A stretch of DNA of 64,000 bases. Origin: Thermoplasmatota archaeon (GTDB lineage: Archaea > Thermoplasmatota > Thermoplasmata > UBA10834). How positions within the stretch are numbered: the first letter of the stretch is position 1; each line of letters opens with the position of its first letter. This document shows, piece after piece, positions 38,074 to 62,582 of this stretch. The notes below the pieces were generated by a model, which had not been told where the DNA came from, did not search any database, and saw only the letters and a program-made list of their open reading frames with translations. Made by a program: the position numbers and the translations under genes. The stretch is taken from NCBI GenBank assembly GCA_040751795.1, contig JBFMHR010000005.1, forward strand, positions 74,282 to 138,281, given 5' to 3'.

Positions 38074-38147
38074 GGTGGTTTCGCCGCATCATTCAAGTAG
38101 TCATATTCATGAAGAAAGGACATGCATGGGTCTGCAAACACACACGT

Positions 38148-39095: not shown

Positions 39096-39106
39096 CCCTT
39101 AGTGCC

Positions 39107-40018: not shown

Positions 40019-40021
40019 GAG

Positions 40022-41160: not shown

Positions 41161-41238
41161 AATCTCACCTTCTGCGCGCCAAATGCGGCTCAAACGACAT
41201 TTGCATATCACCATACACTACGTTTGCTGTTCCGCTAA

Positions 41239-42723: not shown

Positions 42724-43091
42724 ATTCCAGGTCAGCTCCGAACGGACCTTCGAATGGCACTGGTCAGTCACGTCTCAGCGCTCATGCGCCACCTGGTAGA
42801 GAAAGCCCTCTAGGTTCATCTTGGTTTCGCACTCATTTGGCACATCAACCGCATTGAGGGGAATCGGTTTCATAGGATTCAATTGGCTATGCATCATCTC
42901 TCGTTCAGCGGTAGAGGGATGGCCACACCTTTCGAGTGGTCACATGGCATGCTTCGCGCGTTGAGCATGGGATTCCTCTTTTCAGTCAATTGCGAAGGTA
43001 TTTGCGTTTTCAAACGCAATTATGACGTCGGCCCTGGTACAGCACTCTATCCGACACTATGATGGGTAGCTGAACCATTTGCTATCAATTC

Positions 43092-44100: not shown

Positions 44101-44101
44101 G

Positions 44102-45013
44102 TCAGCGTATTTTTCCAGCAAGACCCACAATGATCTTAGGGATGTGAATTGGCATTGCCATGGGGTCAAGCTTGAGCGCTTCGCATATTTCGTAGAATGC
44201 CTTCCTTCTGTTGCCAAGGCGTAGACACCCACCACCAATTTCAGCATGTATTCTCGCTATCTCTTCTCTGGATATCTCATTCTTGCACTCCTTCAACAGC
44301 CATTCTTTGAGCTTAACGCCGTCACTTAGCCAGCTGAGACCGTCTCGACTTACTGTATTTTGCCCATGCAGTCGATAGTATGCAAGTGGTTCCTCTAAGA
44401 AGTAGTACGAGTGCCTTCTTGCCAGACTAAGTTCGAACTTGTAGTCATTCAAGAACTTAAGTTCCTCATCATACATTACGCTCAATGCGCTTTCTCGCTT
44501 CAGTATTCGACTCGAGCCGAAGATGAAATTGCCTTTCAGAAGATCTTCGAAGATGCGCCCACTCTTCGGTTTGCCTTGCGAATTGTGAATGCGAGTGAAG
44601 GTTTGTCCAGTCAACTTGCCAGCTGCATCGATTATCTCGCCTTCTGACCACACAATCAACGTATCATCAGATTCGAGCACAGCGAGCTGCTTTTCGAGTT
44701 TGTCACTCTTCCAGACATCATCAGATGCAATGAACGCTAGAAATTCTCCGTCAGCGTTCTTCATGCCATCGTTGAGTGTTCTTGCTATGCCCAGGTTGTT
44801 GGTGTGAAACACAGCTCGAATCCTGTCGTCCCAGGCAACTGCCTGTTCAATCAACTCTCGGGATCCGTCCTGAGATCCATCGTCAACAATCAATAGCTCT
44901 AGACCACGAACACTTTGCGAGAGAACACTCTCTATTGCAGTTCGAATGTAGGGCAAGTGATTGTATGATGACATTATGACACTGACTCTAGGCAGGGTTC
45001 TCATCTCCATCAT
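44102..45013 (-). CDS. Glycosyltransferase family 2 (GT-A)
   Basis: VSVIMSSYNHLPYIRTAIESVLSQS and LLIVDDGSQDGS (DxD region). 303 aa. Confidence 0.8.
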   Translation of the reverse strand: MMEMRTLPRVSVIMSSYNHLPYIRTAIESVLSQSVRGLELLIVDDGSQDGSRELIEQAVAWDDRIRAVFHTNNLGIARTLNDGMKNADGEFLAFIASDDVWKSDKLEKQLAVLESDDTLIVWSEGEIIDAAGKLTGQTFTRIHNSQGKPKSGRIFEDLLKGNFIFGSSRILKRESALSVMYDEELKFLNDYKFELSLARRHSYYFLEEPLAYYRLHGQNTVSRDGLSWLSDGVKLKEWLLKECKNEISREEIARIHAEIGGGCLRLGNRRKAFYEICEALKLDPMAMPIHIPKIIVGLAGKIR

Positions 45014-45432
45014 GCATCATCTTTCGTGACCCGATCTTCTTTTAGTGAACGCTATTTGAGTATAGAAACCTCGCACAAGTGTCACAGACAACTGAGAATT
45101 GATATCTCTATTCAGGATTCAGTAGTTCGTGATCACCACCACTTTGAGCCAGCGGCACTTCTTTCAGAGGGACTTCGACATCCCTTATGAACTAGTACTC
45201 ACTCTCGAGGATGTACTGGCGCATGGCCAAGAACTTCGGGTGGGAGAGGAAATCATCGTGGGCCGTCCTCCCTCCTGGTCCCCTCCTCGCGGTGGGGAGG
45301 GTCGTCCACTTCCATTCCGCCCATGCATTCACGAGGGGTATCTTTCCTCTTCCCGTGCACTATCGCTAGCATTAAGAGCCGGATATCCTTCGCCTGGGGT
45401 ATCGGATGATGTCTGCTGTGAAGAACGCACGG

Positions 45433-45900
45433 TTAAGCTAGAGGCACTTGAACTCGATGCCCTAGCCGTCGACGAGACGGATGACATCCTTGATGACGGC
45501 CAGCTTCCCGTTCGAACTCTTGACGAACGCTAGCGCGGCCGTCCCCCCTCTTCCCCGAGAGGACCGTATAGGCGGTCGCATAGGCGTGGAACCAGGTGGT
45601 GCCCGGCTTCGGTCTACCTCTCACGACCTTGTCTTTCTTCCCCTTGGGTCTCCCGTGGTACGGGATGAGCATATTGTCGATGGCGATTTTTAGGAGGCGT
45701 TTCGGGAGGAAGCCGGCCGCCTGTTCCACCGAGAGACGGTTCGCGTGCTTGCGCAATAGTCTGAGCGTGGGGCTGCGAAGGCGGTATCGAATCACACCAT
45801 CGCGAGGAGAGGGTTCATGCTCCTGGCATTTCCTGCTCGTAGATATCTTACTGGACGCGGCGAGCGCGAGCTCGCTCGCCATGTCCATCGGGGAGTGCAT
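45433..45900 (-). pseudogene. GC-rich transposase-like fragment (GRPKG...GRPKPGTTW motif region), probably non-functional
   Basis: An isolated GC-rich patch inside low-GC DNA. The frame continues in another phase (…LAFVKSSNGKLAVIKDVIRLVDG). No intact domain. Identity uncertain. Confidence 0.25.
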
Positions 45901-46149
45901 TCATTGGAGCCGCCTGCCAAGAGACTCTGGGATTCAGAACACGGCTATCTTGATGATCTCCTCAGCGGAGACTCCCTGCCGGCGGTTCCGGAGGCAATAG
46001 TCATTTGCTACACAAGCTCATGCGCCTTCGGAGCCATCCAGGGGTCTGCCATCCCATCCTTGACTCTTGTTCACCAAACACTGGCACGGGAGAGATGGCT
46101 CCTCGTTGCTCCTGAGAGGACAATATTGTCAGCAGAAGCCATTTGCGTC

Positions 46150-46467
46150 CAGAACCGACTTTGCCAACTACTGAATCTAGGCAATGATATCTGGACGTTT
46201 CCACTGGCTCATCTCTATAATGATATGCACCCGCCATGCAATAGGTGTATGGAGGGATCCGTTGTTGAGGATGGGGCGGTGATCGGCTCAGGGGCAATCA
46301 TACTGCCGAAGGTTCACGCCGGTGAGGACGCCGTTGTGGCAGCGGATTCGATAGTGACCAAGGACGTCCATGGCAGCATGCTAGTAATGGGAGTTCCAGC
46401 AAGGGTTGTTGCGGAAGTGGGTGACGTCAGATGTGCTGTGGACAATGTTGCCAGACCGTACCCATAG
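46150..46467 (+). pseudogene. C-terminal fragment of a hexapeptide-repeat (LbH) O-acetyltransferase
   Basis: The C-terminal about 100 aa of track ORF 45817..46467 read GSVVEDGAVIGSGAIILPKVHAGEDAVVAADSIVTKDVHGSMLVMGVPARVV, typical of MAT/GAT-type acetyltransferase ends. The N-terminal part of the ORF has no LbH character. Confidence 0.4.
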
Positions 46468-46626
46468 AGGAATAGAGGAGTCTGGGTACGGTAGCTGCAG
46501 GATTCTTGCCTCTGGTTACAGGTAGCTAGCTATTGACATTGGAGAAACGCTGATGTAGCGGTGCTCATATACGCCGATTAGGTAACTGGTTTGCGAGAAG
46601 ATAGGAATCATTCGAGTTATGAAGAG

Positions 46627-47553
46627 ATGATTGAACAAGAAGCGGCGTTTTGGGCCGGCCAAGCCGAAGATGCTGCCATGAAAGGGTTCTCTCCTGATCT
46701 CGAGAAACCATTTGCGGCCACTACTGTCCAGGCTATTTGGGACGATTCTGAGCTCGATTTCATGATTAGGGGGAAATACATTGATAGGATTTTGGATTAT
46801 TGCTCAGGCAGACCACAACTTGATTGTCTGGAACTCTGTTGTGGGACAGGCATGCTTGCACTTGGCGTTTCAAGGCGAGGGGCAAGGGTAATCGGCATTG
46901 ACGTGTCACCACGAGTTATCGAAATCGCTGAGACGTATGCTCGAGACTCAGGCATCCCCCCTGAGAGATTGGAGTACCACGTCTGTGACCTTAACCGAGT
47001 GTCCTTGCCTGAAGAGAGGTTTGATGTCGTTTTCGCCTGGGATGGTCTTCATCATATAGCAGAGATCGAGCACCTCGTTAGTGAGGTCAGGAAGACTCTC
47101 AGAGATGGAGGGGTATTCGTCGTCCACGACCATGCGAAGGGTGATTCTAGGATAGGAGACATTGTGCTGCAGGGACTGGCGGCAATATTGGGTCTGATTG
47201 TTCCTACGGATTCTAGCTTCCTAGCTAAGCTAAAGATGGTCTTCAAACGCGCCTCTCCAATGACAGCCCCCACCTCTGTTGACAATCATAGGCTTCTTGA
47301 TTCCCCATTTGAGGATGTCTCAGGGGAGGGTATAGTAGAGAGTATTACCGAGAATTTCAGAATCCTGGAATTCGAGAGGTATCTCTCATTGCCCGGGACT
47401 CTATACGCTAGGGTCTGGCGGAACCCCAAGACCCGAACGCGGACTATCGGCGCACTTATGGCGTTTGATAGACTGCTATGTGGCTTACACATTCTTCATC
47501 CTGAGTACTTCTTCATCATGGCAAAGAAAGAGACTGTACATAGTGATGACTAG
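46627..47553 (+). CDS. Class I SAM-dependent methyltransferase
   Basis: Motif I LELCCGTGMLALG, then an acidic residue (IGIDVS) and motif-post-I/II patterns. ATG at 46627 (MIEQEAAFW). Confidence 0.75.
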   Translation: MIEQEAAFWAGQAEDAAMKGFSPDLEKPFAATTVQAIWDDSELDFMIRGKYIDRILDYCSGRPQLDCLELCCGTGMLALGVSRRGARVIGIDVSPRVIEIAETYARDSGIPPERLEYHVCDLNRVSLPEERFDVVFAWDGLHHIAEIEHLVSEVRKTLRDGGVFVVHDHAKGDSRIGDIVLQGLAAILGLIVPTDSSFLAKLKMVFKRASPMTAPTSVDNHRLLDSPFEDVSGEGIVESITENFRILEFERYLSLPGTLYARVWRNPKTRTRTIGALMAFDRLLCGLHILHPEYFFIMAKKETVHSDD

Positions 47554-47906
47554 ACACATCCCTCTCTCAAGGCAAAGCGGGGACACAGTTATCAGCGCGA
47601 AAGCGAACTCGCTAATGGCCAATTAGGCAAAAGTGAGAAGGTGATTCCCCGTTCGCATATCCGCGCGAAGGAATGGTCTGCGATTTGAGGAATGCCAGAG
47701 GCTGTGCATGAGAGTCACAGAGGAATTGGGCGAGATACATCGACCTGGGTATGTGCAGTCACTATCTGCCAAGGATCATGTTCCTCTGCCATTGATTCGA
47801 GATTAAGCACGAATGAGCTCATTTCCATCGATATCGCTGTGCTTCTCTCTGCAGCAGCGCGTTAGTATCATTGAAATATCGCCGATGGTAATATGCTGCT
47901 GCGACA

Positions 47907-49166
47907 ATGAAGATTGCCCAGATATCAATGATCAATGGCGCGATAACCGAAGGAAACGTGATGCGAGTTTCGGGACTCTCCCAGGGCCTTCATGACCTCG
48001 GACACTCAGTTCTAGTTGTCTGCAAGTTGAATTCGAAGAGACTGGTCGGTGGTTTTGAGAAGGCCGATGCTCCTCTTCTGAAGTCATTGGTTTGGCTATA
48101 TGGTCCGAGGTCTCCTGTTGAGACTGTGGCGAGCAGGAGTCCGTATGCGAGATTGGCGGCGTATAGACTTCTGTCGCCCTTACCCTATGCCAACATGAGG
48201 GTTACTGACACATGTTCCGTCTTGCACTGTCATCTTCTCGGAGTTGCCTCGCTAATGCTGAGAAAGAGGAGACAGGGGCAGAAGGTATTGCTCGACTTCC
48301 ATGGAATGCTGATGCTTACTGACACATCAGGTACCCCCATAGCTGATACGCGAGGTACCCCTGTGGACTCCCTTGATGATGAATCTCGGTTGAGAGCTCT
48401 CAAATGGCAATCTCAGGTATTCGAAGAAGTGGATGGAGTCTCTTTTGTAACCGCTGCTCTCCGTGATAAGATAACACCGTTGTATGACATCGATCCAGGA
48501 AAGACATATGTCATACCGGATGGAGTGAATTTCCGTCGAATATCTCGGGATTGGCAGAACAGCGATATCCTCAGATTGCGGCAATCATGGGGGAAACCAT
48601 CCGATGTCGTCGTCATGTATGTCGGAGCGCTGGATTCGCTCCATGGGGCATCATATCTCGAGAAGGTTATCCGCGAGTTGTTGGGGAATTCTAGGGTAAG
48701 CACTTCCGTGAGGGTTGTTTTGATTGGCGGAGGTGTTCTCTCGCATTTGTTTGCAGACCTCCAAAGAGGGTTTGGAGATCGATTCGTCCGCATTCGTCGC
48801 GTTTCCTATGAGATGTTGCCCACATATCTAGCAAGTGCTGATATACTCCTTGTGCCCCATGCGAGGAATATGCTAATGGAGAATATCGAATCTGGAAAAC
48901 TTCTCAACTATCTCGCCAGTGGAAAGCCCACGGTGGTGACGTCGCTCGCATCAGTCTCAGATTTCCTGGAGGACAATGTGTCATGCATCATGTGTCATCC
49001 GGATCATCCGTCTACTATGGTATCAGGAATCGAGCGCCTTGTAGATTCTCCTGAACTTAGACAGGCGATAGGCAAGCGGGGAGCTGAAGTCGTGGAGAGA
49101 GGACGTGATTGGTCATTTGTGGCCCAAGGAGCATTGCAGGTCTACCATGATTTGACCAGACCATAG
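47907..49166 (+). CDS. Glycosyltransferase family 4
   Basis: MKIAQIS...GLSQGLHDLGHSV N-terminus and a C-terminal nucleotide-sugar binding half with the GT4 pattern. Confidence 0.7.
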   Translation: MKIAQISMINGAITEGNVMRVSGLSQGLHDLGHSVLVVCKLNSKRLVGGFEKADAPLLKSLVWLYGPRSPVETVASRSPYARLAAYRLLSPLPYANMRVTDTCSVLHCHLLGVASLMLRKRRQGQKVLLDFHGMLMLTDTSGTPIADTRGTPVDSLDDESRLRALKWQSQVFEEVDGVSFVTAALRDKITPLYDIDPGKTYVIPDGVNFRRISRDWQNSDILRLRQSWGKPSDVVVMYVGALDSLHGASYLEKVIRELLGNSRVSTSVRVVLIGGGVLSHLFADLQRGFGDRFVRIRRVSYEMLPTYLASADILLVPHARNMLMENIESGKLLNYLASGKPTVVTSLASVSDFLEDNVSCIMCHPDHPSTMVSGIERLVDSPELRQAIGKRGAEVVERGRDWSFVAQGALQVYHDLTRP

Positions 49167-49337
49167 ATCTCATGCTTCCTGGTAGATTACGGTTCATATA
49201 CGGCGACGAATGGCTAGATGGGCGTCGGCTGCTCTGGAGTTGCCCAAATTCGATGAGTGAAGACGGGTCTCTAGTAATCAATTTCCTACCCATCTTCAAA
49301 TGAACAGATTCGTCTAAATACATGCATGTGATACTGA

Positions 49338-51098
49338 GTGCCTGCCTTTGCCGCAGTGCCATCAGTTTGGGTTACTATGGTGACTCTATCTAAGAAGACC
49401 GTGTTTCTTGCCCTTCTCGCACTTGTTGTTCTCTCATTAGCACTTCGTTATCCCCTTTTGGACCATGAGCGACAGCAATCAGACTCCTATTTCATACATG
49501 GTCTAGCGAACCTGATTGCCGTCAACGGCAGGGCAGAATGGACGATACACCCCCTCTCCTACTTCGGCTATTATCCGTTGTCATACCCTTCAGGAGCCCC
49601 GTTTCTGCTATCCGAATCCGCGATGATGGCTGGAATCCCTTTGGAGGCAGCGGTATTGATGATGGGCATGATTCTAGGCATTGTGCAATGCCTAGCATCG
49701 TTCTGCTTTCTGCGACTATTCATCGTGCGCCCTGAGTTTGTATTGCTCGGCACTTTCCTGTGCGTGGTCTCTTCTAGGTTAGTAGATGTGACCTATTGGA
49801 CGGCTACTGCACGAGGTCCATTCGCTGTCCTCATGCTGGTCACAATTGCCTTCTTAATTGAAGCAGGTAGGAGGGCAGATTTCAGATTGATGTCTGTGGG
49901 TTCATTGTTAGTGATATCCTGCGTGTCCTTGCACCACATGGCCATATTCCTCGTCTTATTCGCACTGGCACAGATAGTGGTTTCCCTAGGATATGAGCAC
50001 TTCAGCCATTATGGATACAAAGGCCGACTGTCTTTGCCCATGTACTATGGGATGATTGCTGGCGCAGTCATTCTCACCGGCTTCGGAATCTGGACCTATC
50101 TCGGGTCGAGAGCTATTAGCAGTCTCGGAAGCACGACGTGGTTCGACTTCACGCCTCGGTTTCTTTCGGTCATGGTCAACGCGCTGGCTGTCTACTCTAG
50201 CCAGATAGGGTTTATAGTCCCTCTTGCCTTCCTCGGGATCCCGTATTTGCTGCGTAAGCGCCAGGGGGATCTGAGGATGATGTTCCTACTCGCAGTTCTC
50301 ATCTTCTTCATTCCCTTCATCGGGTACCAGCTGTATGTAGCGATAATAATCGCTCCCTACCTCATTGCACTCGGCATCATCTGGCTCTATTCGTTCAGTC
50401 GTCAGAACAGATGGAGAAACCTGGCCGTTCCCCTGATTGTGATACTAGTCGCCTCCTCTCTTGTGCTCCCCCCATTGATGATTGACCGATGGAACGAGAA
50501 GGAATACGTAGAAGGGGACAAGGTCGTTGTGGACCCCGATGTGTTCAATATTGCGACCTACTGCGAGGTGAATTATGGATCTGATCCATCAATATCGAAC
50601 GCAGCAATCATGAAGGGATTGATAGGGACGATTGCCGGAGTCCCATTTTCAGGTCCAGGGCTATCGTCGCTGCTGAATGGCGACATCACACCGGAAGAGG
50701 TACGCTCTAGAATTGAACCCACGAGCGGATTTACCCCCGACTCTATGTATATATGGTTCAGGTATGAGGAGAGTCTCTTCGTTGGCTACTTCGAGGTGGG
50801 GTTGATGACGCAAGGGATTGAAGCCTTCTATAGCGCGAGTTATCTTCTGGATTTCGAGTCCCGCGAGTATCTCGTGAATCACTCTCGTCTGGTCGTGTAT
50901 GTTGACAACAACTGGCCTAGTAGCTACTCAACGATCTATGCGGATAGGCCCGCTGTCTTCCTGTCGGAACTCCAGAAGTCGCAGAGCGAGTCAGAATACT
51001 CCGTTGGATTCGGATCCATGGGCTTTGCGTCGTATATGACCTACGCAACCCATCGGTCATCAGTCTATATTGTGCAGTTGCCTCCTGCCTCCTGGTGA
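49338..51098 (+). CDS. Polytopic membrane protein (about 12 TM plus C-terminal soluble domain) with acidic first loop; candidate GT-C-like glycosyltransferase or glycan polymerase; paralog of 55521..57311
   Basis: The first extracytoplasmic loop carries LLDHERQQSDSYF and PLSYPSGAPF. These are shared with the second protein (FNNDGMTESRIAEDI; GLSYPSDAFY). No WWDYG (AglB/STT3) motif. Confidence 0.45.
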   Translation: MPAFAAVPSVWVTMVTLSKKTVFLALLALVVLSLALRYPLLDHERQQSDSYFIHGLANLIAVNGRAEWTIHPLSYFGYYPLSYPSGAPFLLSESAMMAGIPLEAAVLMMGMILGIVQCLASFCFLRLFIVRPEFVLLGTFLCVVSSRLVDVTYWTATARGPFAVLMLVTIAFLIEAGRRADFRLMSVGSLLVISCVSLHHMAIFLVLFALAQIVVSLGYEHFSHYGYKGRLSLPMYYGMIAGAVILTGFGIWTYLGSRAISSLGSTTWFDFTPRFLSVMVNALAVYSSQIGFIVPLAFLGIPYLLRKRQGDLRMMFLLAVLIFFIPFIGYQLYVAIIIAPYLIALGIIWLYSFSRQNRWRNLAVPLIVILVASSLVLPPLMIDRWNEKEYVEGDKVVVDPDVFNIATYCEVNYGSDPSISNAAIMKGLIGTIAGVPFSGPGLSSLLNGDITPEEVRSRIEPTSGFTPDSMYIWFRYEESLFVGYFEVGLMTQGIEAFYSASYLLDFESREYLVNHSRLVVYVDNNWPSSYSTIYADRPAVFLSELQKSQSESEYSVGFGSMGFASYMTYATHRSSVYIVQLPPASW

Positions 51099-51248
51099 CC
51101 GCACCCTCCTGAGCGGCGCAATTCTGTCCAACGACTCACAGGCCTATGCTATGACGGGAGAAGCATCTCTGATGTCCTTCTGTGAGAGGATATTCGCGAG
51201 CAGCAGGAACACTGCTACAGAGATTGCGCACCTCATCTTCGTTAGTCC

Positions 51249-52535
51249 TCATTGAATGCGTAATCGTTCGTAGAGCGTTATTGCGAACCAGAGTCTCCTT
51301 CTAGATGACACCCACATTCTAAAGCGGAGCATCCTAGCGGATAGACGATCGGCAGCACCGACGTCCGGAAGAGGGCGATGGTACTCTGGAACGGTCCTTC
51401 CCTTTCTTGCCAGGTAGCGAATCATGGCTGCTCTGCGCCTCTGCAAGTAGTCGATAGATTGTGATTCTTGGACATCCTCTTTGCTCGCTATTCTGATATC
51501 GACCATGCCAGATTGCGCCGCCCTCTCGATGAGCGATATTGCCGAGCCTGTCCTAGCTATGACCAGAGACGTCCCAGACCTATCACCAGAAAAACGGGGG
51601 AGCCATGCATCCATGAATGAAGCATCTGAGAGTTCTGCGGTCTTGTCAATGCATAATGTGCACCGTGGTGGAAAGAAGAACTTGTGAAAGATAAGTCCCC
51701 AGTATGATTTCGAGCCAAAAGGTATGGTCCTCCGGCTCCCATCGCGCAGTTGCAGGGAGAGGACCCCCGGCCACCCTCCTCCACGGTAGGAAATCTCGGC
51801 AACCATCTCCTTCGAAATCCCATTTCGTCTCAGAAGATATTCTGTGGCATGATGCGAGGGCGTGTGGTTGCATACGAGGCCGAAGATTAGGACAATCCGT
51901 TCCTTCAATTCTGGATAGACCTCCATAGCCTTGCATATTCCGTGAATGTGGCAAGGGAGACCAATTACTGCGTATCTGCCTGGATTGGCGAGCAGCTCTC
52001 GCAGTGCGGTGTTGGCTGACACCGGGCAGTATTTCGACCCCGCGGAAGAGAGTATATCCTCGCGAGTCCGAGCTAGAAATGTCGCAGGTTCAAGCGGAGA
52101 TGACTGATTCATCCCTGTGACTAGAGCTGCGTCGATGATTCCCGCATCTAATGCAAACACTAGAAGTGAAGTAGCAAGCCCACCAGATGATGATGATACT
52201 CGGATACCGATGTCTGCAGCATTGCCGGCGAACACCTCCTTGATACAGCCTGCATTGGAATCATCAGGTCGTTTCCCGAAGCGGGCAATATTCAGTCCAT
52301 CGAGATCGACAGAGTGCCCAGGACATGTTCTCAGGCACTTCCTGCAACTGACGCATATGCCATCTCTTACTGATGGGGTTTGTATGCCTAAGCGGTCATC
52401 AGTGCAAATTGCGATGGCACGAGTCTCACAGATTGATACGCATGTTCCACAGCCTGTGCAGAGTCCATGTTCGACCACGGACGAGATATTCCGCCATTGC
52501 GACACCGTTTCCACTTGAGTGTCACCGGCATACAA
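51249..52535 (-). CDS. Coenzyme F420 hydrogenase/dehydrogenase beta-subunit-like (FrhB/FdhB family) protein with N-terminal 2x[4Fe-4S] ferredoxin domain
   Basis: CTGCGTCVSICE and CVSCRKCLRTCP cluster motifs, then an FrhB-like flavin-binding body. Adjacent to a pyruvyl transferase, as in many bacterial polysaccharide loci. Confidence 0.65.
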   Translation of the reverse strand: MYAGDTQVETVSQWRNISSVVEHGLCTGCGTCVSICETRAIAICTDDRLGIQTPSVRDGICVSCRKCLRTCPGHSVDLDGLNIARFGKRPDDSNAGCIKEVFAGNAADIGIRVSSSSGGLATSLLVFALDAGIIDAALVTGMNQSSPLEPATFLARTREDILSSAGSKYCPVSANTALRELLANPGRYAVIGLPCHIHGICKAMEVYPELKERIVLIFGLVCNHTPSHHATEYLLRRNGISKEMVAEISYRGGGWPGVLSLQLRDGSRRTIPFGSKSYWGLIFHKFFFPPRCTLCIDKTAELSDASFMDAWLPRFSGDRSGTSLVIARTGSAISLIERAAQSGMVDIRIASKEDVQESQSIDYLQRRRAAMIRYLARKGRTVPEYHRPLPDVGAADRLSARMLRFRMWVSSRRRLWFAITLYERLRIQ

Positions 52536-52873
52536 TATCGCACTGGCTATTCAAACTCTCCGCCACTTGAGCCGCAGCGATAGGTCTGCTCATCGAGCTT
52601 GGATATGTTTGAAGACACAGATCACGAGCGGGAGAACTCAGGGAGTCTGCAATTGTCATTGGGTGTGCCCACCCCGCAACGTCAACCCCGCAGATTCGTT
52701 GTCTTCCCTGAGGCAGTTGTCGTAGGGCATTACGGTGAACCCCATCCCGCATGGTGGCTGCCGATTGACCATTGGCGCAATCTTGGCTGAGTGCCTATGG
52801 CAAGACCTGCATCAAACCATCAACAGAAGTCCGTTCGCAGTTGATGGAGCAGATACCTCAATCCTTCCTGTCC

Positions 52874-54145
52874 TCACATGTTCTTCTGCACGACGCGCTC
52901 TGAGATCAATTCTGCCGTTCTCCTTGCCAACGCCTGGATCTCCGGGATCCTATCCAGGAGTGTTCGTCTGATCTGCGTTCGTCTTTCCCATGCGTCTTCG
53001 ACTGTTTCCAGCAATCGCTCAGGGGGGTCATCCCAATTACGAACATACTGGTCCTGGCCTGCCATTGACATTATTCCCGGCGTCTTGTTGCTGTATGAGA
53101 TTGCCACCGTGGGGACATGCATCGTGAGTGCAGCAATGTTGGCGTGCATACGAGCACCGATGAAGAGGGTGCATAGTCCGATGATTCCTCGTATCACTTC
53201 TGGCTGATATGCACCTTCTATCACGAACACTCTTTCGCGATATTTGGATTTCTTTGCAGCGGCAACAGCGATGTCCCGATCATTCGGGTTCAGATTTGGG
53301 TCAGTGACATGAGGTATGAAGACAACATCAACATCGTGTTCCTCAATCATGTGATCTGCAAGCTCTGCGAGATTAAGCAGGTACTCCCCAGCTGCCACCC
53401 CTTCTCTTGAGCGAGAGAACCTGAAAAGGAGCTCGCTCGGTGCTATTCCGACAAGCGGGCGTCCGTTGTCCACCGGAATTCGCTCCATCTTCAGGGTTTC
53501 CCTGGCTTCGTTCTCCGAAATCGCCCCCAGGAGGAATGCGCCATCTGCAGTCATAAGCACTTCCTGTTTCACTCCAATCTGAATCAGATAGTTTCTGCTA
53601 ATCTCCTCTCGGACAATCAGCAAGTCCACTCTATCAAGAAAGAATCGTGCGATTCTCCTGGCGATTCCATTGCGGAAGGGACCGATTGACTGGGAGTGAA
53701 TGACTACCGGGACTCTTAGGATAATGCACCAGAAGAACGGGAGCCATGACCTGACGGAACGTACGACTCCAAAATCATCGGTTAGCCCGTCACCCGACAG
53801 ATTCACGACAACGTCTGATCTCTTGTATTCGCTCTTCCTCGTCTCTCCGCCAACTAGCTCAATCCTCAGACATCTCTCGAGGACTATCAGAATGGTTTCT
53901 GCGAATATCCTGATGTTGGATACATCATGAGGAATCCTGATGGCTAGTGCGGTCTCGAAGCGTCTGTCTCTTTCGGGACTATAGGAGATGAACGTGATCG
54001 CAGGGTTCTCGAATACTCTCCTAATCTCCATGATCGCGGACAGAACTATGGATGCCGTCCCTCGATTCCTCGAGAGTTCTGCCCCGACTAGCAAGAATCT
54101 CAGGCCAGTCATTGCTATTATCAGACTGGAGTGAATTGACTGCAC
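52874..54145 (-). CDS. Polysaccharide pyruvyl transferase (CsaB/WcaK family)
   Basis: 423 aa with the VVNLSGDGLTDDFG block and overall PS_pyruv_trans layout. Confidence 0.7.
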   Translation of the reverse strand: MQSIHSSLIIAMTGLRFLLVGAELSRNRGTASIVLSAIMEIRRVFENPAITFISYSPERDRRFETALAIRIPHDVSNIRIFAETILIVLERCLRIELVGGETRKSEYKRSDVVVNLSGDGLTDDFGVVRSVRSWLPFFWCIILRVPVVIHSQSIGPFRNGIARRIARFFLDRVDLLIVREEISRNYLIQIGVKQEVLMTADGAFLLGAISENEARETLKMERIPVDNGRPLVGIAPSELLFRFSRSREGVAAGEYLLNLAELADHMIEEHDVDVVFIPHVTDPNLNPNDRDIAVAAAKKSKYRERVFVIEGAYQPEVIRGIIGLCTLFIGARMHANIAALTMHVPTVAISYSNKTPGIMSMAGQDQYVRNWDDPPERLLETVEDAWERRTQIRRTLLDRIPEIQALARRTAELISERVVQKNM

Positions 54146-54534
54146 ATAAGCTTAACTGGACGCAATGCACCATCTCTGGATCTCATGCCGATTTGACTGG
54201 CCATAACCTTGTTAATCATGGGCGTGCTCGATTGGGATGGTCCCCGCTATGCATGTTTGATGCTCCTGCTCAAGTCACAGATACTAAACTCGCCGCTCAG
54301 AAGTGGATTGATGAGAACCCTGCCCAATCTGCACCTTCTTGTCTCTGCCCCGCGGTGAGCACATGGATTCAACGCCAGGTTTCATCCTTACCTGTCAATC
54401 CTGACACTCAGCGGTGCTTCATCCCCGATGTTACCGAGAACCCCAGGCAAATCCGATTCGGAGGCGCCTAGCACCATGGCGTGATCGCATCGCTTCATGA
54501 TAGGGGTCTGAAAACATAATTATACTTCAGCTTC

Positions 54535-55503
54535 ATGACGGAGAAGGTATCGATGGTCAACGTCCTAGCATTCATCGGGTCATTTGCGGTTGCCTTCTTG
54601 GTGACATTCATCATCATTCCTTGGTTGATACCCCAGTTGAAAGCTAGGGGAATTGTCGGGAAGGATCTGAACAAGCCTAGCCAACCAGAGATTGCTGAGA
54701 TGGGCGGAATTGCGGTCGTGATTGGCTTCTTTGCAGGAGTGAGCATACTCCTTGCCATGGATGATGTGACCAACAAGGAGGTCTTCAATGTCTCCCTCTC
54801 AGTCCTCATGGGGTCTGCATTCATCGGCATGATAGACGATCTATTTGAGTTGAGACAGAGGCAGAAAGCCCTTTTCCCTTTTCTGCTGGCTTTGCCATTT
54901 GGTGCATCTCTCAATCCCGTGGTAAGCCTCCCTTTCATTGGAGAGGTGCACTTCGGAATCGCTATGATTATCGCTGCACCATTTGCCATCACATGTGCAG
55001 CGAACGCAGGCAACATGCTCGAAGGGTTCAACGGTCTAGGCACAGGACTTGGAATCATCATGTCTTCCACGCTGATTCTGCTAGCCTTTGAACATGATAG
55101 ACTTGACGGGCTCTATCTACTCATCCCCTTGCTGGGAACCCTGCTCGCCTTTCTATGGTTCAATAAGTATCCGTCGCGAATATTCCCAGGCGACACCCTC
55201 ATGCTGTTCATCGGCACGACTCTAGCCGTCTCTGGAATGCTCTCTGGCTTACATTTCCAGACCGGTTTCATCTTCATGCCCATGATAATCGAGTTCTTTC
55301 TGAAATGGCGTGGGCGTTTCAAGGCTGAGAACTATGCATCTGGACTGAAGGGTGGTTATCTGGAATATCACGGCAGGATTGAATCCATCACACACTTATT
55401 CATGAAGCATGCTAGGGTTACCGAAAGATCTTTGACAATCGCCATCTGGGCTATCGAGGCGGTCTTCTGCGCCTTGGTGGTTGTCGGGGATTCGGTCATC
55501 TGA
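54535..55503 (+). CDS. Polyprenyl(dolichyl)-phosphate GlcNAc/HexNAc-1-phosphate transferase (MraY/WecA/AglH family, initiating phosphoglycosyltransferase)
   Basis: 10-11 TM helices. DDxxD (GMIDDLFEL), NAGNMLEGFNGLGTGLG (N..N..DG.DGL-type motif) and PGDTLMLFIG. Confidence 0.75.
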   Translation: MTEKVSMVNVLAFIGSFAVAFLVTFIIIPWLIPQLKARGIVGKDLNKPSQPEIAEMGGIAVVIGFFAGVSILLAMDDVTNKEVFNVSLSVLMGSAFIGMIDDLFELRQRQKALFPFLLALPFGASLNPVVSLPFIGEVHFGIAMIIAAPFAITCAANAGNMLEGFNGLGTGLGIIMSSTLILLAFEHDRLDGLYLLIPLLGTLLAFLWFNKYPSRIFPGDTLMLFIGTTLAVSGMLSGLHFQTGFIFMPMIIEFFLKWRGRFKAENYASGLKGGYLEYHGRIESITHLFMKHARVTERSLTIAIWAIEAVFCALVVVGDSVI

Positions 55504-55520
55504 GCAGATTGCAGGAATTC

Positions 55521-57311
55521 TCAAGATTGAAAGGCAATAATCCTATTGTCGGAGGGTCCTCCGATATACACAACATTCGAATCATCTAGAACGGTATCCA
55601 CCTCATTGCTGTCGAGAAATATCCGTCCTTGAGGGTAGTTGTTCACACCTAGAGCGCTCCATTCATCAAGCAGCAAGTTGATGCTTTCGGGGCTCAGCTG
55701 TTCAGATTCAGCGAGCCGACGCGGCAGACTGGGATCCTGCGCGTAATCATACAGAGCGCGCGCAATATAGGAGATACGCTCGTCAGACCGAATATTCATA
55801 TCAAGGCCGCAAGTATCATGTGCCCATGTGATGGCATCGAATTCGTACAATTCTGTATCATGCCTGACTCCCGTGAGCGTATCAGTTGCGTAACTGAATG
55901 GAAATGACACTATCAGCACCGCAGAGAGGATGATGACAAGTGCCTTTCTCATTCGTGGTCTTCGATATACAGCTGCACACGCAGCGCCAACACCTAATGC
56001 CAACGGTATCTCAGAGAAGTCATATGTGCGGTAGATGAGCGCATGCCCCATCTGCGCCGAATCCTCTAGAATTGCCAGAAGAAGGAACATGAAGATGGGC
56101 AGCAGGAATCCAAGCGGGACAGACCTGTATCTTGAGTGTGACTCAATTAGGTACTCCATTCCGTACCAGCCAACACCAACGACTATCGCCATACAGAATG
56201 CTAGGATCATCACGTAGTGCGGGGCAGCTTGTTCGTATTCGAACATGGGGTTAATGTAATCAATGATGAAGAGGGAGAACACAAGCGTCGCCGGGATGGG
56301 GGCGAAGGACACGCGGTATCTCGATTCCTTATTCAGGTAAAGGTAAGTTATTGCGACTATGACCGCAAGAGAGCCGCCAATCATTGCGATCTCCTGAACG
56401 CTATCGGCGTAGGCTAGACGGTTCAATGAGTTCATGGAGTAGTAGGCATAGGTGACAAGTGTCGTGGCAATCATTGCCACCAGATCACGCACATGACGGG
56501 TTCTCAGTACCTGCGCCTTGGCAGCAAAGGCAAGGGAGACCAGAGTCAGATACCATAGCGCCAAGTATACGATTGCCGCAATGAGGTGGTGGACAATTGG
56601 GAGGACGAGTAGAATAGTCATGCTGAGCAGGAACATCCTGATATCGCTACGGCTGATGTATAGATAGATTATGAATGCGATGAGGGCTACGCCGAGCGAC
56701 TCCTTCCAGGCTGACCCGGATAGAAACACGAACGAGCCAAACAAGCCGAGTACAAAGGATGATAACATTGCAGCAATGGCGTTCGAAGAGACTTTGAGTG
56801 CAACTGCATAGATTCCCACAACGGTAAGCACTGAAAATGCCGCAACCAGAAACTGGGCCACCCAGAATGGCGAAGTCCCTAACATTAGTGCTGCAAATGC
56901 CAGAATAAGGTTGAATGCAGGTGTTATCACGCTGTGAGAATCTGCGTAGAATGCATCAGAGGGATATGAGAGGCCGCCGCTCGAAATGATGTCCTCGGCA
57001 ATCCGACTCTCAGTCATGCCATCATTATTGAAGGGGAATGGAGAAATTGCGAGTGGCACCAATCGAGTAGATAGGGCCATGAACACCAGCGACAGTATAA
57101 TGGCACGCCGCATTCCTCCAAATCCTCTTATGGACTTCCCGATGCTAAGGATTCTCGCAATGAGTGGTTGTCTCGAGTTGTTCTGATGCACAGTTGGAGA
57201 TTCATGTTCCGCTTCATTAAAGGGCTGTCCTTCCTGCCTGATAGGATTTAAGGAAGTGCGGTTGGCCACCTTTGGGTCTGAGTCCAATCCGGGGGATTTC
57301 ATGATATGCAT
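55521..57311 (-). CDS. Polytopic membrane protein (about 13 TM plus C-terminal soluble domain), paralog of 49338..51098; candidate GT-C-like glycosyltransferase
   Basis: Shares first-loop motifs with its paralog (FNNDGMTESRIAEDI, GLSYPSDAFY). Possible alternative start at 57113 (MRRAIILSLVF). Confidence 0.45.
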   Translation of the reverse strand: MHIMKSPGLDSDPKVANRTSLNPIRQEGQPFNEAEHESPTVHQNNSRQPLIARILSIGKSIRGFGGMRRAIILSLVFMALSTRLVPLAISPFPFNNDGMTESRIAEDIISSGGLSYPSDAFYADSHSVITPAFNLILAFAALMLGTSPFWVAQFLVAAFSVLTVVGIYAVALKVSSNAIAAMLSSFVLGLFGSFVFLSGSAWKESLGVALIAFIIYLYISRSDIRMFLLSMTILLVLPIVHHLIAAIVYLALWYLTLVSLAFAAKAQVLRTRHVRDLVAMIATTLVTYAYYSMNSLNRLAYADSVQEIAMIGGSLAVIVAITYLYLNKESRYRVSFAPIPATLVFSLFIIDYINPMFEYEQAAPHYVMILAFCMAIVVGVGWYGMEYLIESHSRYRSVPLGFLLPIFMFLLLAILEDSAQMGHALIYRTYDFSEIPLALGVGAACAAVYRRPRMRKALVIILSAVLIVSFPFSYATDTLTGVRHDTELYEFDAITWAHDTCGLDMNIRSDERISYIARALYDYAQDPSLPRRLAESEQLSPESINLLLDEWSALGVNNYPQGRIFLDSNEVDTVLDDSNVVYIGGPSDNRIIAFQS

Positions 57312-57860
57312 GTCATTTCGACCTCGAAATGTCTATCTACGCGGGACTCAATAGTCAGATTTCCAATATCGAACTCCACACAATGCATCTCATCCGGCCT
57401 CATCCGATGTCGCATCTGGAAATCTCTACCTGGTCTTATCGCATCGTCTGGCTGCTGCAGCTCTTTGGTTCATGATATCCCATACAATGCTATGTCTCGG
57501 TTTGCACCGCATGCGGTTTGGATTACTCATGCATCACCGATGTTGAATCGCCAGATGAACGAAGCCGTTCTATATATTCGTTGGCTGCACATTGCGGTGG
57601 GGAGAGGCATGAAGACTACTGAGCCACTCGCCATGGATCCGGATGGCTGTCCAGCTGCGGCTCGAGTACTATGTGAGGTTTCAACGACTGCAAGTGCCAG
57701 AACCTGCCACGCGGTCTGCTGTGGTATGCTAGACAAGACAATGCCCCTCACCTGCCACCTAGAGATACCAAGATATATTGGGATACCCACTCATGCCAAT
57801 CAGATCGGCCATCATGTCATCTCAATTGGCGCAATGGCCGATACTCATGAGTGATGACCA

Positions 57861-59033
57861 ATGTCAGTGCGGCTAATAAGAGTGGTAATCTTCCACAATC
57901 TGCCAACATCATACAGACTCCAGTGGTTCCAGCACATTCTCCGAGACCCCGACCTCGACGTTAGGATATTCCTTACTGGACGACCCAGGTCGAATCGTCC
58001 GTATTGGGTCGATGCTCCGGAATTCCGAGATGGGCGGGTTACAGCCCTTCGCGGACTGGGCTTCCCGCTCAAAGGCCTAGACAATGACAGGTACAATATC
58101 AATCCCGGACTCTTGAGAGTCCTCGATGGGCGCCCAGATGTAGTCATGCTGTTCGGATACGCTGAGCCGACCAACCTCGCGGTCGCAATGCTTTGTCGAC
58201 TGAGAGGGATTCCTTACATACTGTCTGCCGAAGTGTCAGATGTCTGGGGCCAGTCTCTGACTGGAAGGATAAGCATGCCTCTTGTCAAGCGAGTAGTCAG
58301 GAACGCAGCTGGTCTAGCTCCGGCTAGCACGACGTGTGCTCGGTTCTTCGAGAGTCTTGGCGGAAATCGTGAGTCTATGTCGATTATTCCATGTGTTCCC
58401 GACGTTGAACCTCTCAGACGTGCGAGGGAATCGCTAGGATTAGATGCATCGATTATCAAGGATCGTTTGAATCTGAAGGGGATGTCCATCGTTCTGTTCG
58501 TTGGGCGATTGCACGACTACAAAGGGGTGCGCGAGGCAATCGAGGCGCTCGGAATAGTAAGGCGATCAAGACCTGACGTCGTGATGGTGATTGTGGGGAG
58601 CGGACCTTTGGGGAGTTATGTCGAGGAAATGAGCAGACAGCTGGCGCCTAACCTCATGTTCCTCGGAACTGTCGATGACGCTACTCTTCGGGACTTGTAC
58701 TTGGCATCGGATATACACATCATGCCTTCATGGCATGAGGCCTTTGGCGTCGTCTGTGCTGAAGCGCTCGGGTATGGAGTGCCATCAATAGTCACGCGAA
58801 CCTCAGGATGCAGCGATTTGGTGACCGATGGGGAGAATGGATACATCATCAATCCTGGAGATGCTCAGGAACTCGCCCATGCGATTATCGTGTCCCTCTC
58901 TGACCCGATTGCCCTCGACCGTATGAAGAAACTTGCTTTTTCGAAGTCAGAAGACTTTTCGATGAGCATCATTATGGCCAGGCTCAAGAGACTTATCCAT
59001 GAAGTGGCAGAGCGTTCACGAGTATCAAGATGA
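57861..59033 (+). CDS. Glycosyltransferase family 4
   Basis: C-terminal EAFGVVCAEALGYGVPSIVTRTSG (E-x7-E) signature. Confidence 0.75.
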   Translation: MSVRLIRVVIFHNLPTSYRLQWFQHILRDPDLDVRIFLTGRPRSNRPYWVDAPEFRDGRVTALRGLGFPLKGLDNDRYNINPGLLRVLDGRPDVVMLFGYAEPTNLAVAMLCRLRGIPYILSAEVSDVWGQSLTGRISMPLVKRVVRNAAGLAPASTTCARFFESLGGNRESMSIIPCVPDVEPLRRARESLGLDASIIKDRLNLKGMSIVLFVGRLHDYKGVREAIEALGIVRRSRPDVVMVIVGSGPLGSYVEEMSRQLAPNLMFLGTVDDATLRDLYLASDIHIMPSWHEAFGVVCAEALGYGVPSIVTRTSGCSDLVTDGENGYIINPGDAQELAHAIIVSLSDPIALDRMKKLAFSKSEDFSMSIIMARLKRLIHEVAERSRVSR

Positions 59034-59373
59034 CACTCAGCGAACGGTCAATTGAATTCTAGGGCGCGACTCATGATTCTCTCAAATGAGATATCGAGAC
59101 CTCCAATCGCAGGCGAGTTCTGAATCTCAACTCACCATCGCGCGTTAGTGGGGCGGCGCGTCTCGACTCAGCAGTCCCATTGGCTGCCTCTTTCCGCGAA
59201 CCACCGATTAGTGTGATGGAGACATGAAGTCCAAGCTTACGCCCTTCTGGAGGATTCTGCAGGGCAGGGCGAGGGAAAGACATATCTGTGCCGTTTGGCT
59301 ATTGCATCTTGCTGCCAATCAATAGGCACCGCTGAGGGATCGCTGGCTATTCATTAATCGAGGCTGTTGGAAG

Positions 59374-60654
59374 ATGTCGGATGCGGGAAATGGAACTGCG
59401 AATGTCATCAAAGATGCCTATGTCGAAGCCAGTAAGGAGACTCGCACGAGCGACTTGCCCACAGTCTACTTCCTGGGCGGCCACCATCCGTCAAACGAGC
59501 CATTCATACGATCTCCCCCTTCGAATGTGAGACTGTGTTCAAGGGTGACTGCGAAGGAATTCGAGGAATTCGGTAGGCTCAAACAGTATAGTGGCATGTG
59601 GCCGGTAATGAAGAAGACAAATGATGCTCTCTACAGATCCATTGGCATGCCGCGCCTTCTTCCTGTATTCGGCAGATACGACCTCGTGCACACGAATGGC
59701 TCAGTGATACCTTTGTGTCCCGGCCCATGGGTTGCCAGCATAGAGAACCCTTCAGCATTCTATGGATTCGATGAGAGGTGGCATGAGATTCCGCGTATGA
59801 GGAAACGGCTTGCATCATTCTTGATATCGGAGAGATGCAGGGCAATAATGCCATATTCAGAGGCATCAAAGAGGTACCTGATGATGGGGCTAGCTGACTG
59901 GAAAGAGACCCTCGAACTCAAGACCGAAGTCATTCCCCTAGCGATTGATAAACGCCTCATAAGGAAGAAACCTGAGGACTTGAAGGCTAGGGATGTATCT
60001 GAGAAGATGCGATTCCTCTTCGTTGGCAATCACTTCTTCGACAAAGGCGGACGGGAAGTCTTGAGAGCTTTCCGCAACATTCGTGATTATCACGACTCTG
60101 AACTCACAATCGTCACTTCCGCGCCACCGCACCACTCCAAGGAGTTCCAGGAGTACATACCTAAGATCAAGGCCGAGAAGGATGTAAGATTCTATCATAC
60201 TGGTATTCCAAGGTCTGAGCTAATGAAGCTCTATGACTCATCGCATGTGTTTGCGTTCCCATCATATATGGATCAAGTCCCGTTCGTATTCCTTGAAGCT
60301 ATGGCGGCAGGGTTGCCTCTGATAGGCTCCAACTCCTACGCGATGCCAGAGATGTCAATCGATGGCTCTAATGGCTTCGTTGTTGAGAGTCCTTGGGTTG
60401 CATTTCCTAAATCAGAGTTGAGAACTGTGCGCCATCTCGTCGCCTATCGCTCTGCAGTACTCGAGGAACGTAATTTCGACGGAGTTGTCGAGAACCTGAT
60501 TGATAAGATGAAGTTCCTGATTGACCACGAAGATACAAGGATGATGTTCGCCAGGGAGTCACTTGAGATGGTGATTAATGGCAGATACTCTTTGGGTTGC
60601 AGGAACAAGGCGTTGTCTGCCGTATACTCTAGGAGTCTGCCGAGAATTCGATGA
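59374..60654 (+). CDS. Glycosyltransferase family 4-like
   Basis: C-terminal PFVFLEAMAAGLPLIGSNSYAMPE signature. The N-terminal half is divergent. Confidence 0.6.
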   Translation: MSDAGNGTANVIKDAYVEASKETRTSDLPTVYFLGGHHPSNEPFIRSPPSNVRLCSRVTAKEFEEFGRLKQYSGMWPVMKKTNDALYRSIGMPRLLPVFGRYDLVHTNGSVIPLCPGPWVASIENPSAFYGFDERWHEIPRMRKRLASFLISERCRAIMPYSEASKRYLMMGLADWKETLELKTEVIPLAIDKRLIRKKPEDLKARDVSEKMRFLFVGNHFFDKGGREVLRAFRNIRDYHDSELTIVTSAPPHHSKEFQEYIPKIKAEKDVRFYHTGIPRSELMKLYDSSHVFAFPSYMDQVPFVFLEAMAAGLPLIGSNSYAMPEMSIDGSNGFVVESPWVAFPKSELRTVRHLVAYRSAVLEERNFDGVVENLIDKMKFLIDHEDTRMMFARESLEMVINGRYSLGCRNKALSAVYSRSLPRIR

Positions 60655-60981
60655 TAGTTTCATAGAGCGGGGCAGCCGATTGACGATTCTGGATTCATAA
60701 TCATCCACCAGAAGGGCCTGGTCATAGATATTGAACCCCAGTGTCCATCCCGAGCATATATCATTTGAACTCGACTTCGATTCGAACCACCCCGTTGCCC
60801 ATTCTCCGGTGTTGTACAGAAGTGGACGGACTTATGTGGCCAACGCTCGGCCGGGAGGAGGTTCCCACAGACTCTGTTGGGACTTGAACACAGAGGCCAT
60901 TTTTCCCACGCGATTCACCCAACCCGGTCTATTAATGGAGAGGATTATTATCTTCGATGCCTCTCCAAGCTTGGCTTCGAC

Positions 60982-61962
60982 ATGATTATCTCTAGGACTC
61001 CTTTGAGGGTCAGCCTCGCTGGCGGAGGCACGGATATGGCCGATTACTACCGCTCAGGTTTCGGGGCGGTCACTGCGTCCGCAATCAAGAAGTACATGTA
61101 TGTGACAGTGAACAAGAGGTTCGAGGACAACATCCGTGTCAGTTACTCCAAGACTGAGATCGTTGCTACCCTTGATGCGCTCGAGCACGGGATTGTCAGA
61201 GAGTGCCTCAGGAAAGTGGGTATAAGGAGCGGAATCGAGGTTACAACAATAGCAGACATCCCCTCGAAGGGCACAGGCCTGGGCTCGTCCTCCGCGCTTG
61301 CAGTGGGACTCCTGAATGCTCTATATGCCTTCAAAGGGTATCGAGCCTCTCCGAAGAAGCTCGCCGAGGAGGCGTGCGAGATCGAGATTGAGCAGCTGCA
61401 TGAGCCAATCGGCAAGCAGGATCAATATATGGCTGCCTATGGAGGGCTTCAGCACTTCAGGTTCAATGCGGATGAGACCGTACTTATAGACCCTGTCGTG
61501 TGTCCTGCGAAGACTAAGCGGGATATTGAGCAGCACCTGATGTTGTTCTTCACTGGCCGAAGCAGGAACGCTAGGGATATTCTGACAGCCCAGAAGAGCA
61601 ACGCAGGCAAGAAGAAGGAGACGCTCGACATCATGCGCGACCAGGCTGTCAGCCTCTTCCAGGACCTTGTCTCACTCCAGGTCGGCCGGATAGGGGAGGT
61701 CCTCAGGGAGGGGTGGAACCTGAAGAAGTCCCTGGCCGAAGGCATCTCGGACAAGGAGATAGATGCACTCATGGAGAAGGCGATGACTGCGGGAGCAGTC
61801 GGTGGCAAGATCACAGGGGCTGGGGGAGGAGGATTCATGGTGCTCTTCGTTCCTCCTGAGCGGCAATGGGGCGTGAGGAACGCACTCGTGGACCTCAAGG
61901 AGGTAGAATTCAAGATTGAACCTCAGGGTTCACGGATAATCTATGTCGGAGATGAGATGTGA
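60982..61962 (+). CDS. GHMP-family sugar kinase, D-glycero-D-manno-heptose-7-phosphate kinase (HddA)-like
   Basis: MIISRTPLRVSLAGGGTD N-terminus, GHMP motif PSKGTGLGSSSALAV, and C-terminal KITGAGGGGF. Confidence 0.75.
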   Translation: MIISRTPLRVSLAGGGTDMADYYRSGFGAVTASAIKKYMYVTVNKRFEDNIRVSYSKTEIVATLDALEHGIVRECLRKVGIRSGIEVTTIADIPSKGTGLGSSSALAVGLLNALYAFKGYRASPKKLAEEACEIEIEQLHEPIGKQDQYMAAYGGLQHFRFNADETVLIDPVVCPAKTKRDIEQHLMLFFTGRSRNARDILTAQKSNAGKKKETLDIMRDQAVSLFQDLVSLQVGRIGEVLREGWNLKKSLAEGISDKEIDALMEKAMTAGAVGGKITGAGGGGFMVLFVPPERQWGVRNALVDLKEVEFKIEPQGSRIIYVGDEM

Positions 61963-62555: not shown

Positions 62556-62582
62556 GGACCTCCGAGATCGGAATGAGATACA

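Follow-up and report, generated by a model that had tools for sequence, protein, structure and literature searches.

A pyruvyl transferase paired with an FrhB-like iron-sulfur flavoprotein in an archaeal glycan island: a candidate two-enzyme module for lactyl ether synthesis

The window considered here is the whole stretch of 64,000 nucleotides analysed from a Thermoplasmatota archaeon (GTDB lineage Thermoplasmata, UBA10834; assembly GCA_040751795.1, contig JBFMHR010000005.1, positions 74,282 to 138,281), and all positions are counted from its first letter. Two of its genes, both on the minus strand, are our subject: P0002, an open reading frame (ORF) at 52874..54145 that encodes a pyruvyl transferase of family PF04230, and P0001 at 51249..52535, which encodes an FrhB-like iron-sulfur flavoprotein (428 amino acids from TTG 52535) scoring over the cut-offs of PF04422 and PF04432. 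The assembly measures 2.05 Mb, is 92.8% complete and encodes ribosomal protein S19e; the host is therefore an archaeon, as an earlier note on this DNA, which spoke of an archaeal-type genome, had supposed. The same note placed the transferase directly downstream of the FrhB-like gene. Because both are read from the minus strand, the transferase in fact lies upstream, and the two are separated by an unstranded spacer of 338 bp (52536..52873) of odd composition, in which we find short ORFs only, none of them credible, and no Rfam match at E ≤ 0.1.

P0001 opens with a 2x[4Fe-4S] ferredoxin domain (residues ~17-80; 52296..52487, minus strand) that is matched by Fer4_7, Fer4_6 and Fer4 as a 4Fe-4S dicluster domain, and its two CxxCxxCxxxC motifs (C26/29/32/36 and C61/64/67/71) contain eight cysteines, all invariant in 24 homologues. 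The FrhB core follows (51492..52235, minus strand), made up of FrhB_FdhB_N (residues 101-178; E 1.5e-20, 73.6 bits) and FrhB_FdhB_C (residues 187-348; E 4.4e-29, 101.7 bits). Both Pfam domains and both cysteine motifs bear out the FrhB/FdhB-like identity, with two ferredoxin-type clusters, that the earlier note had read from the sequence. A third cluster is predicted within the core, where C195, C222, C292 and C295 align with cysteines of FrhB (3ZFS_C). The SGGL-T and SKY flavin-site motifs align with the same chain and are invariant in the homologues. C170 and H196 are invariant in the family but not in FrhB, and are candidates for substrate protonation. The C-terminal ~80 residues (51252..51491, minus strand) form a basic, aromatic-rich helical extension that is absent from FrhB proper, whose chains (278-291 residues) align with P0001 only until about residue 348. 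The extension has helices at 361-377, 394-410 and 413-427 in the AlphaFold2 model, is present in homologues as well, and may serve to associate the protein with the membrane. In the public gene call P0001 has 328 residues, starting near 52235 and lacking the 2x[4Fe-4S] domain altogether. As homologues with 40-69% identity align from residue ~8-17 onward, the start must be TTG 52535 or GTG 52514/52505, 21-30 nt downstream.

The AlphaFold2 model of P0001 (predicted local distance difference test score, pLDDT, 89.7; predicted template-modelling score, pTM, 0.90) finds its best structural matches, with TM of 0.7-0.8 normalised to the target, in the FrhB-type modules 8RIU_B and 8RJA_E (F420-reducing subunits of carbon monoxide dehydrogenase (CODH)/Fwd), Fsr (7NP8), FrhB and HCAR (5DQR). 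FrhB, the N-terminal half of Fsr, the two modules and HCAR share with P0001 the fold, the domains, the [4Fe-4S] ligands and the flavin-site motifs, and the N-terminal dicluster ferredoxin domain of Fsr and 8RIU_B resembles that of P0001. What sets P0001 apart from the FrhB systems is a genome without hydrogenase or F420 context, together with the extra extension and with C170 and H196, which are invariant in its family and specific to it. HCAR, a ferredoxin-dependent chlorophyll reductase within the FrhB family, offers a precedent for a substrate reductase; BciB is another member. By analogy with these two, the substrate of P0001 is probably organic and the electrons for its reduction of ferredoxin type. 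P0001 is the genome's single PF04432 gene and P0002 its single PF04230 gene; CofD, CofE, CofH and McrA were not found in the 92.8%-complete assembly. With one copy per family and neither F420 biosynthesis nor McrA detected, the label 'F420 hydrogenase' is misleading, and because CofD, CofE and CofH were not found in a genome about 93% complete, F420 is unlikely to be the cofactor of P0001.

The P0002 ORF is opened by GTG 54145, and its likely start is ATG 54112, consistent with the 412-residue public gene call. The PS_pyruv_trans domain (~53087-54046, minus strand) matches PF04230 with E 4.8e-33 and 115.7 bits (cut-off 25.3) over profile positions 8-280 of 280. P0002 stays under the NCBIfam equivalog cut-offs for CsaB (86.2 vs 213.1) and WcaK (72.2 vs 399 and 58 vs 727). 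Its AlphaFold2 model (pLDDT 92.2) has a GT-B-like fold of two Rossmann domains, and the top structural matches are GT-B enzymes and UDP-GlcNAc 2-epimerases; Pvg1p is absent among the top matches listed. A sequence search of the PDB with P0002 gave no match, and a profile search with its family reached Pvg1p weakly (E 0.45). D119, R179, D201, H279, D289, R332, H334 and K354 are invariant in 31 homologues, and R179, D201 and H334 are common to P0002, WcaK and the transferase of the Escherichia coli O146 antigen. The residues implicated in binding phosphoenolpyruvate (PEP) or the acceptor, or in catalysis, are D106, R217, R337 and H339 in Pvg1p and H308 in CsaB (PMC4872226, PMC10435577). R332-x-H334 of P0002 fits the RLH motif of Pvg1p (R337, H339), and the GARMHA motif lines up, in a weak profile alignment, with DRLHAH of 5AX7. 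The full-length PS_pyruv_trans match comes with the conserved PEP-binding and catalytic residues; the earlier note had named a lack of catalytic residues as something that would refute its reading. The ketal-forming enzymes CsaB, WcaK and Pvg1p share PF04230, the GT-B-like fold and the Arg/His/Asp core with P0002, and EpsO, GumL and ExoV are further ketal pyruvyltransferases of this family. CsaB, WcaK and Pvg1p act alone and yield cyclic ketals, whereas most members of the P0002 subfamily have a reductase as partner.

The linkage of the two families was assessed from both sides. An alignment of 24 P0001 homologues was used to collect 80 loci, one per GTDB species, which span at least 12 phyla in both domains and include Methanobacteriota, Bathyarchaeia, other Thermoproteota, Altarchaeota, Promethearchaeota, Chloroflexota, Planctomycetota, Bacillota and Pseudomonadota; the family occurs mostly in anaerobes. 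Methanosarcina, Methanothermobacter and Pelotomaculum terephthalicicum (L029, L040, L053, L058) are cultured examples of carriers. With a profile built from P0002 relatives, 73 of the 80 loci are seen to have a transferase of the P0002 type in their flanking sequence. At 63 of them a near full-length transferase is directly adjacent (27 pairs convergent, 20 with the transferase first and 16 with the reductase first). Among the exceptions, four are cut by contig ends, L021 and L048 contain divergent PF04230 genes, and L007 has no transferase among the neighbours scanned. All homologues of 750-1412 amino acids (45/45) are fusions that also carry PF04230; at least 19 have the order reductase-transferase and at least seven the order transferase-reductase, so fusion arose more than once, independently. 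A reverse survey of 80 metagenomic P0002 relatives, 53 evaluable and 27 undecidable, found the reductase adjacent in 33 of the 53 and within a few kb in four; the nearest neighbours of P0002 in the tree are all reductase-partnered. The pairing of the families is far beyond chance, and the P0001-P0002 pair is real and functionally coupled. The co-occurrence that the earlier note described for bacterial polysaccharide loci therefore stands on the counts of flanking genes and fusions.

The surveys also turned up some unusual arrangements. At L007 (7977-12827, a Dehalococcoidales chromosome) the FrhB-like gene is apparently split (7977-8849 and 8853-9263) and is followed by a second FrhB-like gene lacking the ferredoxin domain, then by the alpha subunit of indolepyruvate:ferredoxin oxidoreductase. 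Three Bathyarchaeia loci (L010, L014 and L031) have the order transferase-reductase-transferase, and one reductase may serve two transferases there. Several unpartnered P0002 relatives (L133 7281-9146, L134 3367-5265, L127 4935-6806, L140 7245-9128 and L151 7560-9122) lie beside asparagine-synthase-like genes of the AsnB family, which may represent an alternative tailoring, such as amidation of the pyruvyl carboxylate; another (L156 7344-8387) lies beside an aldo/keto reductase.

Two Bathyarchaeia genomes show what the reductase can be paired with in place of the transferase. At L021 (7983-10562) a true MurA (TIGR01072, 497 bits; cut-off 392.7) comes directly after the FrhB-like gene (7983-9287), which encodes a full-length relative of P0001, and L018 (7983-10543; reductase 7983-9281), from another genome, has the same arrangement (491 bits) plus a second pair of reductase and transferase. 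MurB_C was not found in either genome, and a true MurA was not found in any of the 400 other genomes sampled from that phylum. A FastTree phylogeny of the reductase family groups P0001 with L029, L003 and the MurA-partnered protein of L018 (Shimodaira-Hasegawa (SH)-like support 95), and the next clade out adds the MurA-partnered protein of L021 (SH-like support 85). MurA makes an enolpyruvyl ether, which is then reduced to a lactyl ether. MurA and PS_pyruv_trans are unrelated in fold and alike in transferring the three-carbon unit of PEP to the hydroxyl of a sugar. If a reductase can have either MurA or the transferase as its partner, the simplest reading is that it is an enolpyruvyl-ether reductase. 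The MurA-reductase neighbours in Bathyarchaeia may, in their own right, be an archaeal route to a muramic-acid-type sugar.

Antigens of known structure from enterobacteria provide the chemical side of the argument. In a survey of 79 Klebsiella cps loci, a 'coenzyme F420 hydrogenase' gene occurs only in K66, next to the K66-specific pyruvyltransferase wcqF (reference locus AB924602), and a 'nitroreductase' gene only in K22/K37, next to the pyruvyl transferase wclZ; K8, K22, K37 and K66 have pyruvyltransferase genes, yet their capsules are not pyruvylated (PMC4616057). O-lactyl sugars are found in exactly three Klebsiella types, as beta-Glcp-O-lac in K66 and beta-GlcpA-O-lac in K22 and K37 (Table 1, PMC6856556), and the K22 sugar is 4-O-[(S)-1-carboxyethyl]-glucuronic acid, according to the title of the paper on that structure. 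Lactyl groups are also present in the E. coli O-antigens O58, O124, O146 (lactyl-glucose, with no ketal reported), O69 and O150, and O164 differs in having none of the lactyl group (glucolactilic acid) of O124, a loss attributed to a frameshift in one gene, wfeP (PMC7685785). In the O146 cluster of E. coli ATCC 8739, wzx is accompanied by one gene of the nitroreductase family and one of the pyruvyl transferase family; at the DNA level these two match only O146 clusters (17 genomes), and we found no FrhB-family gene in the ATCC 8739 chromosome. From the K66, K22/K37 and O146 loci it follows that in three independent antigens the combination of a transferase and a flavoprotein is accompanied by a lactyl ether rather than a ketal; the flavoprotein is of FrhB type in one of the three (K66). 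As in the window, each of these is a glycan locus of Wzx/Wzy type in which a PS_pyruv_trans gene is accompanied by a gene for a flavoprotein. K66, with HG203 ('coenzyme F420 hydrogenase') and WcqF, has the same two annotated families as the window, a comparison made by annotation. The partner in K22/K37 and O146 has a nitroreductase fold, unlike P0001; the hosts are bacterial, and the assignments are genetic or correlative only. The literature searched gave, as an explicit assignment of an FrhB-like partner, only the Klebsiella survey (PMC4616057).

On these grounds we consider it likely that P0001 and P0002 act as one module, and that this module attaches an O-(1-carboxyethyl) group (a lactyl ether) to a sugar in the surface glycan of the island. 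P0002, to judge from its family, would use PEP to place a C3 carboxyvinyl or pyruvyl unit on a sugar hydroxyl of a lipid- or nucleotide-linked glycan. P0001, as the swapping of partners and the antigen structures suggest, would then reduce this unit to the lactyl ether at its flavin site, where the substrate would take the place that F420 has in FrhB. A low-potential donor such as ferredoxin, not F420, would supply the electrons, by way of the N-terminal 2x[4Fe-4S] domain and the [4Fe-4S] cluster of the core. In this scheme the pair would be a counterpart of MurA/MurB without homology to them, and is proposed to share their logic of PEP-dependent carboxyvinyl transfer followed by flavin-dependent reduction to a D-lactyl ether. 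P0002 (GT-B-like) has no homology to MurA, which has the MurA/EPSPS fold, and P0001, an FrhB-family Fe-S flavoprotein, has none to MurB, which is NADPH-dependent. The product expected on a hexose is +72 Da, as against +70 Da for a ketal. The earlier note's prediction of ketal-pyruvylated sugars (+70 Da) is probably wrong, given that loci with a transferase and a flavoprotein carry lactyl ethers and are listed as not pyruvylated, and given the MurA swap. Its aside that the redox partner could hint at a reductive modification becomes, on the same evidence of lactyl-bearing loci and the exchange for MurA, the main point. We have a slight preference for a wider statement, in which the FrhB-like proteins are a widespread family of enolpyruvyl-ether reductases, driven by ferredoxin and independent of F420, that replace MurB without being homologous to it and work with either the transferases or MurA.

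Several observations weigh against this proposal. K66 is the sole antigen that ties an FrhB-type protein to a lactyl ether, and its homology is known from annotation. The P0002-subfamily profile scores WcaK at 163 bits and does not match the O146 transferase, which belongs to another subfamily (WcaK and the O146 enzyme are both distant from P0002 in the tree, at 24% and 20% identity); judged by sequence, then, the P0002 subfamily is nearer to a ketal enzyme than to the O146 transferase. We sought residues by which transferases with and without a reductase partner could be told apart and found none, so the transferase sequence alone does not predict an enol ether. No reductase is present near 16 of the 53 evaluable P0002 relatives, although at least 1.5 kb of sequence was available to either side. 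The 338-bp spacer of this archaeon is unusually long for the module. The absences of F420 genes and of MurB are judged from incomplete metagenome-assembled genomes, the FrhB trees were built by FastTree only, and the literature searched gave no biochemical assay of any member of the module. The O146 nitroreductase had no homologue in 160 loci; the unpartnered transferases therefore do not use a nitroreductase of the O146 type.

Some of these points would fit a different division of labour, in which P0002 forms a ketal and P0001 performs another redox step on the same glycan, for example on a keto-sugar or another substituent. The full PS_pyruv_trans core of P0002, its nearness to WcaK relative to the lactyl-associated O146 enzyme and the 16 relatives without reductase all agree with this. 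It leaves unexplained why adjacency and repeated fusion bind the reductase to a single transferase family, and why the sole alternative partner found is MurA, itself a PEP-dependent enolpyruvyl transferase; moreover, the capsules made by loci with a transferase and a flavoprotein are lactylated rather than ketal-pyruvylated. We regard this explanation as unlikely.

The lactyl ether might also be reached by another route, with P0002 forming a ketal or an enzyme-bound oxocarbenium or phospholactyl intermediate that P0001 reductively opens or intercepts, such that a complex is required and the enol ether is never free. That fusion has occurred repeatedly and in both orders hints at two enzymes cooperating in close contact, and the want of a sequence signature marking partnered from ketal-forming transferases suits such a scheme. 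P0001 relatives, however, occur with MurA, an enzyme that releases a free enolpyruvyl ether as its product, and because 27 of the 63 adjacent pairs are transcribed convergently, co-translational assembly is not needed. This route, too, strikes us as improbable.

P0001 might instead leave the sugar substituent alone and serve as a redox sensor or activator by which the transferase is regulated or matured. Its three Fe-S clusters, which could sense redox state, and the mostly anaerobic distribution of the family would suit such a role. The flavin-site motifs of the catalytic FrhB core are, however, invariant, the characterised pyruvyl transferases CsaB and Pvg1p need no FrhB-like partner (PMC4872226, PMC10435577), and neither the MurA swap nor the correlation with lactyl sugars would be explained; we think such a role very unlikely. 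Least credible of all is that P0001 is a genuine F420-dependent enzyme of energy metabolism (a hydrogenase or dehydrogenase subunit) that lies beside the transferase by chance: the Pfam and NCBIfam names and the structural likeness to FrhB, Fsr and the F420-reducing CODH/Fwd modules speak for it, but P0001 widely misses the frhB (76.8 vs 331.5), FpoF (65 vs 475) and related equivalog cut-offs, its genome yielded no other FrhB-family gene and none of the F420 or McrA genes sought, and the family's place beside the transferase is kept in Planctomycetota and Bacillota, which to our knowledge are generally without F420.

The pair is embedded in a glycan-biosynthesis island. The GC content of the window is 65-69% until about 30 kb and about 50% across 31-64 kb, and this low-GC part (31000..64000, unstranded) is marked out by its gene content as well: an archaeosortase-like gene, a radical SAM gene, several glycosyltransferases of families GT4 and GT2, an amino-sugar operon, a Wzx-like flippase, a methyltransferase and a Glycos_transf_4 initiating transferase of MraY/WecA/AglH type (54535..55503, plus strand; PF00953, E 5e-29), which is transcribed divergently from the pair. 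The pair is flanked by two ORFs for polytopic membrane proteins of ~590 residues each (49338-51098, plus strand, and 55521-57311, minus strand) that have no match in Pfam; these could be the island's polymerase, ligase or oligosaccharyltransferase. Further off, an ORF at 45817-46467 (plus strand) has a weak hexapeptide-repeat match, under the Pfam cut-off, that fits the remnant of a truncated acetyltransferase.

Among 30 relatives of the host archaeon the reductase is found in one only, a genome of the same genus (G011:C2:85682-89767, L168). Its reductase is 43% identical to P0001, is adjoined by a transferase in the opposite gene order and lies in a stretch of 48% GC. Because the module is rare among relatives, and because of the identity, gene order and composition of this copy, we conclude that the module is carried as mobile cargo by variable glycan islands rather than conserved by vertical descent. 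The second copy suggests independent acquisition within the genus. The earlier note had held that a lack of co-conservation in related genomes would speak against the pairing; the pair is indeed patchy (2 of 12 genomes of the genus), yet wherever the reductase occurs the transferase stands beside it.

Lactic acid ethers of sugars have been known from capsules, O-antigens and exopolysaccharides since the 1970s; for enzymes other than MurA/MurB, the literature searched held no paper that both assigns and tests the synthesis of a lactyl ether. The module described here is a concrete two-enzyme candidate for that synthesis. What is established is an unfused archaeal instance of the pair, a truncated public gene model, and MurA in the place of the transferase beside close relatives of the reductase, in genomes where MurB was not found. 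The unfused archaeal pair in a genome with no detectable F420 pathway adds an argument for an F420-independent enzyme, and the MurA-partnered relatives offer a simple assay substrate, UDP-GlcNAc-enolpyruvate. Our assignment would put right a misannotation, 'coenzyme F420 hydrogenase subunit beta', that is very common in bacterial and archaeal glycan loci, and it shifts the glycan mass to be sought by mass spectrometry from +70 to +72 Da. We know of no report of lactyl-ether glycan sugars or of muramic-acid-type sugars from archaea. The module predicts acidic, ether-linked decorations, stable to base and acid, on archaeal surfaces. If our reading is true, many archaea, with this non-methanogenic archaeon, Methanosarcina, Methanothermobacter and Bathyarchaeia among the candidates, would bear lactyl-ether sugars on their glycans, and some Bathyarchaeia would make sugars of the muramic acid type.

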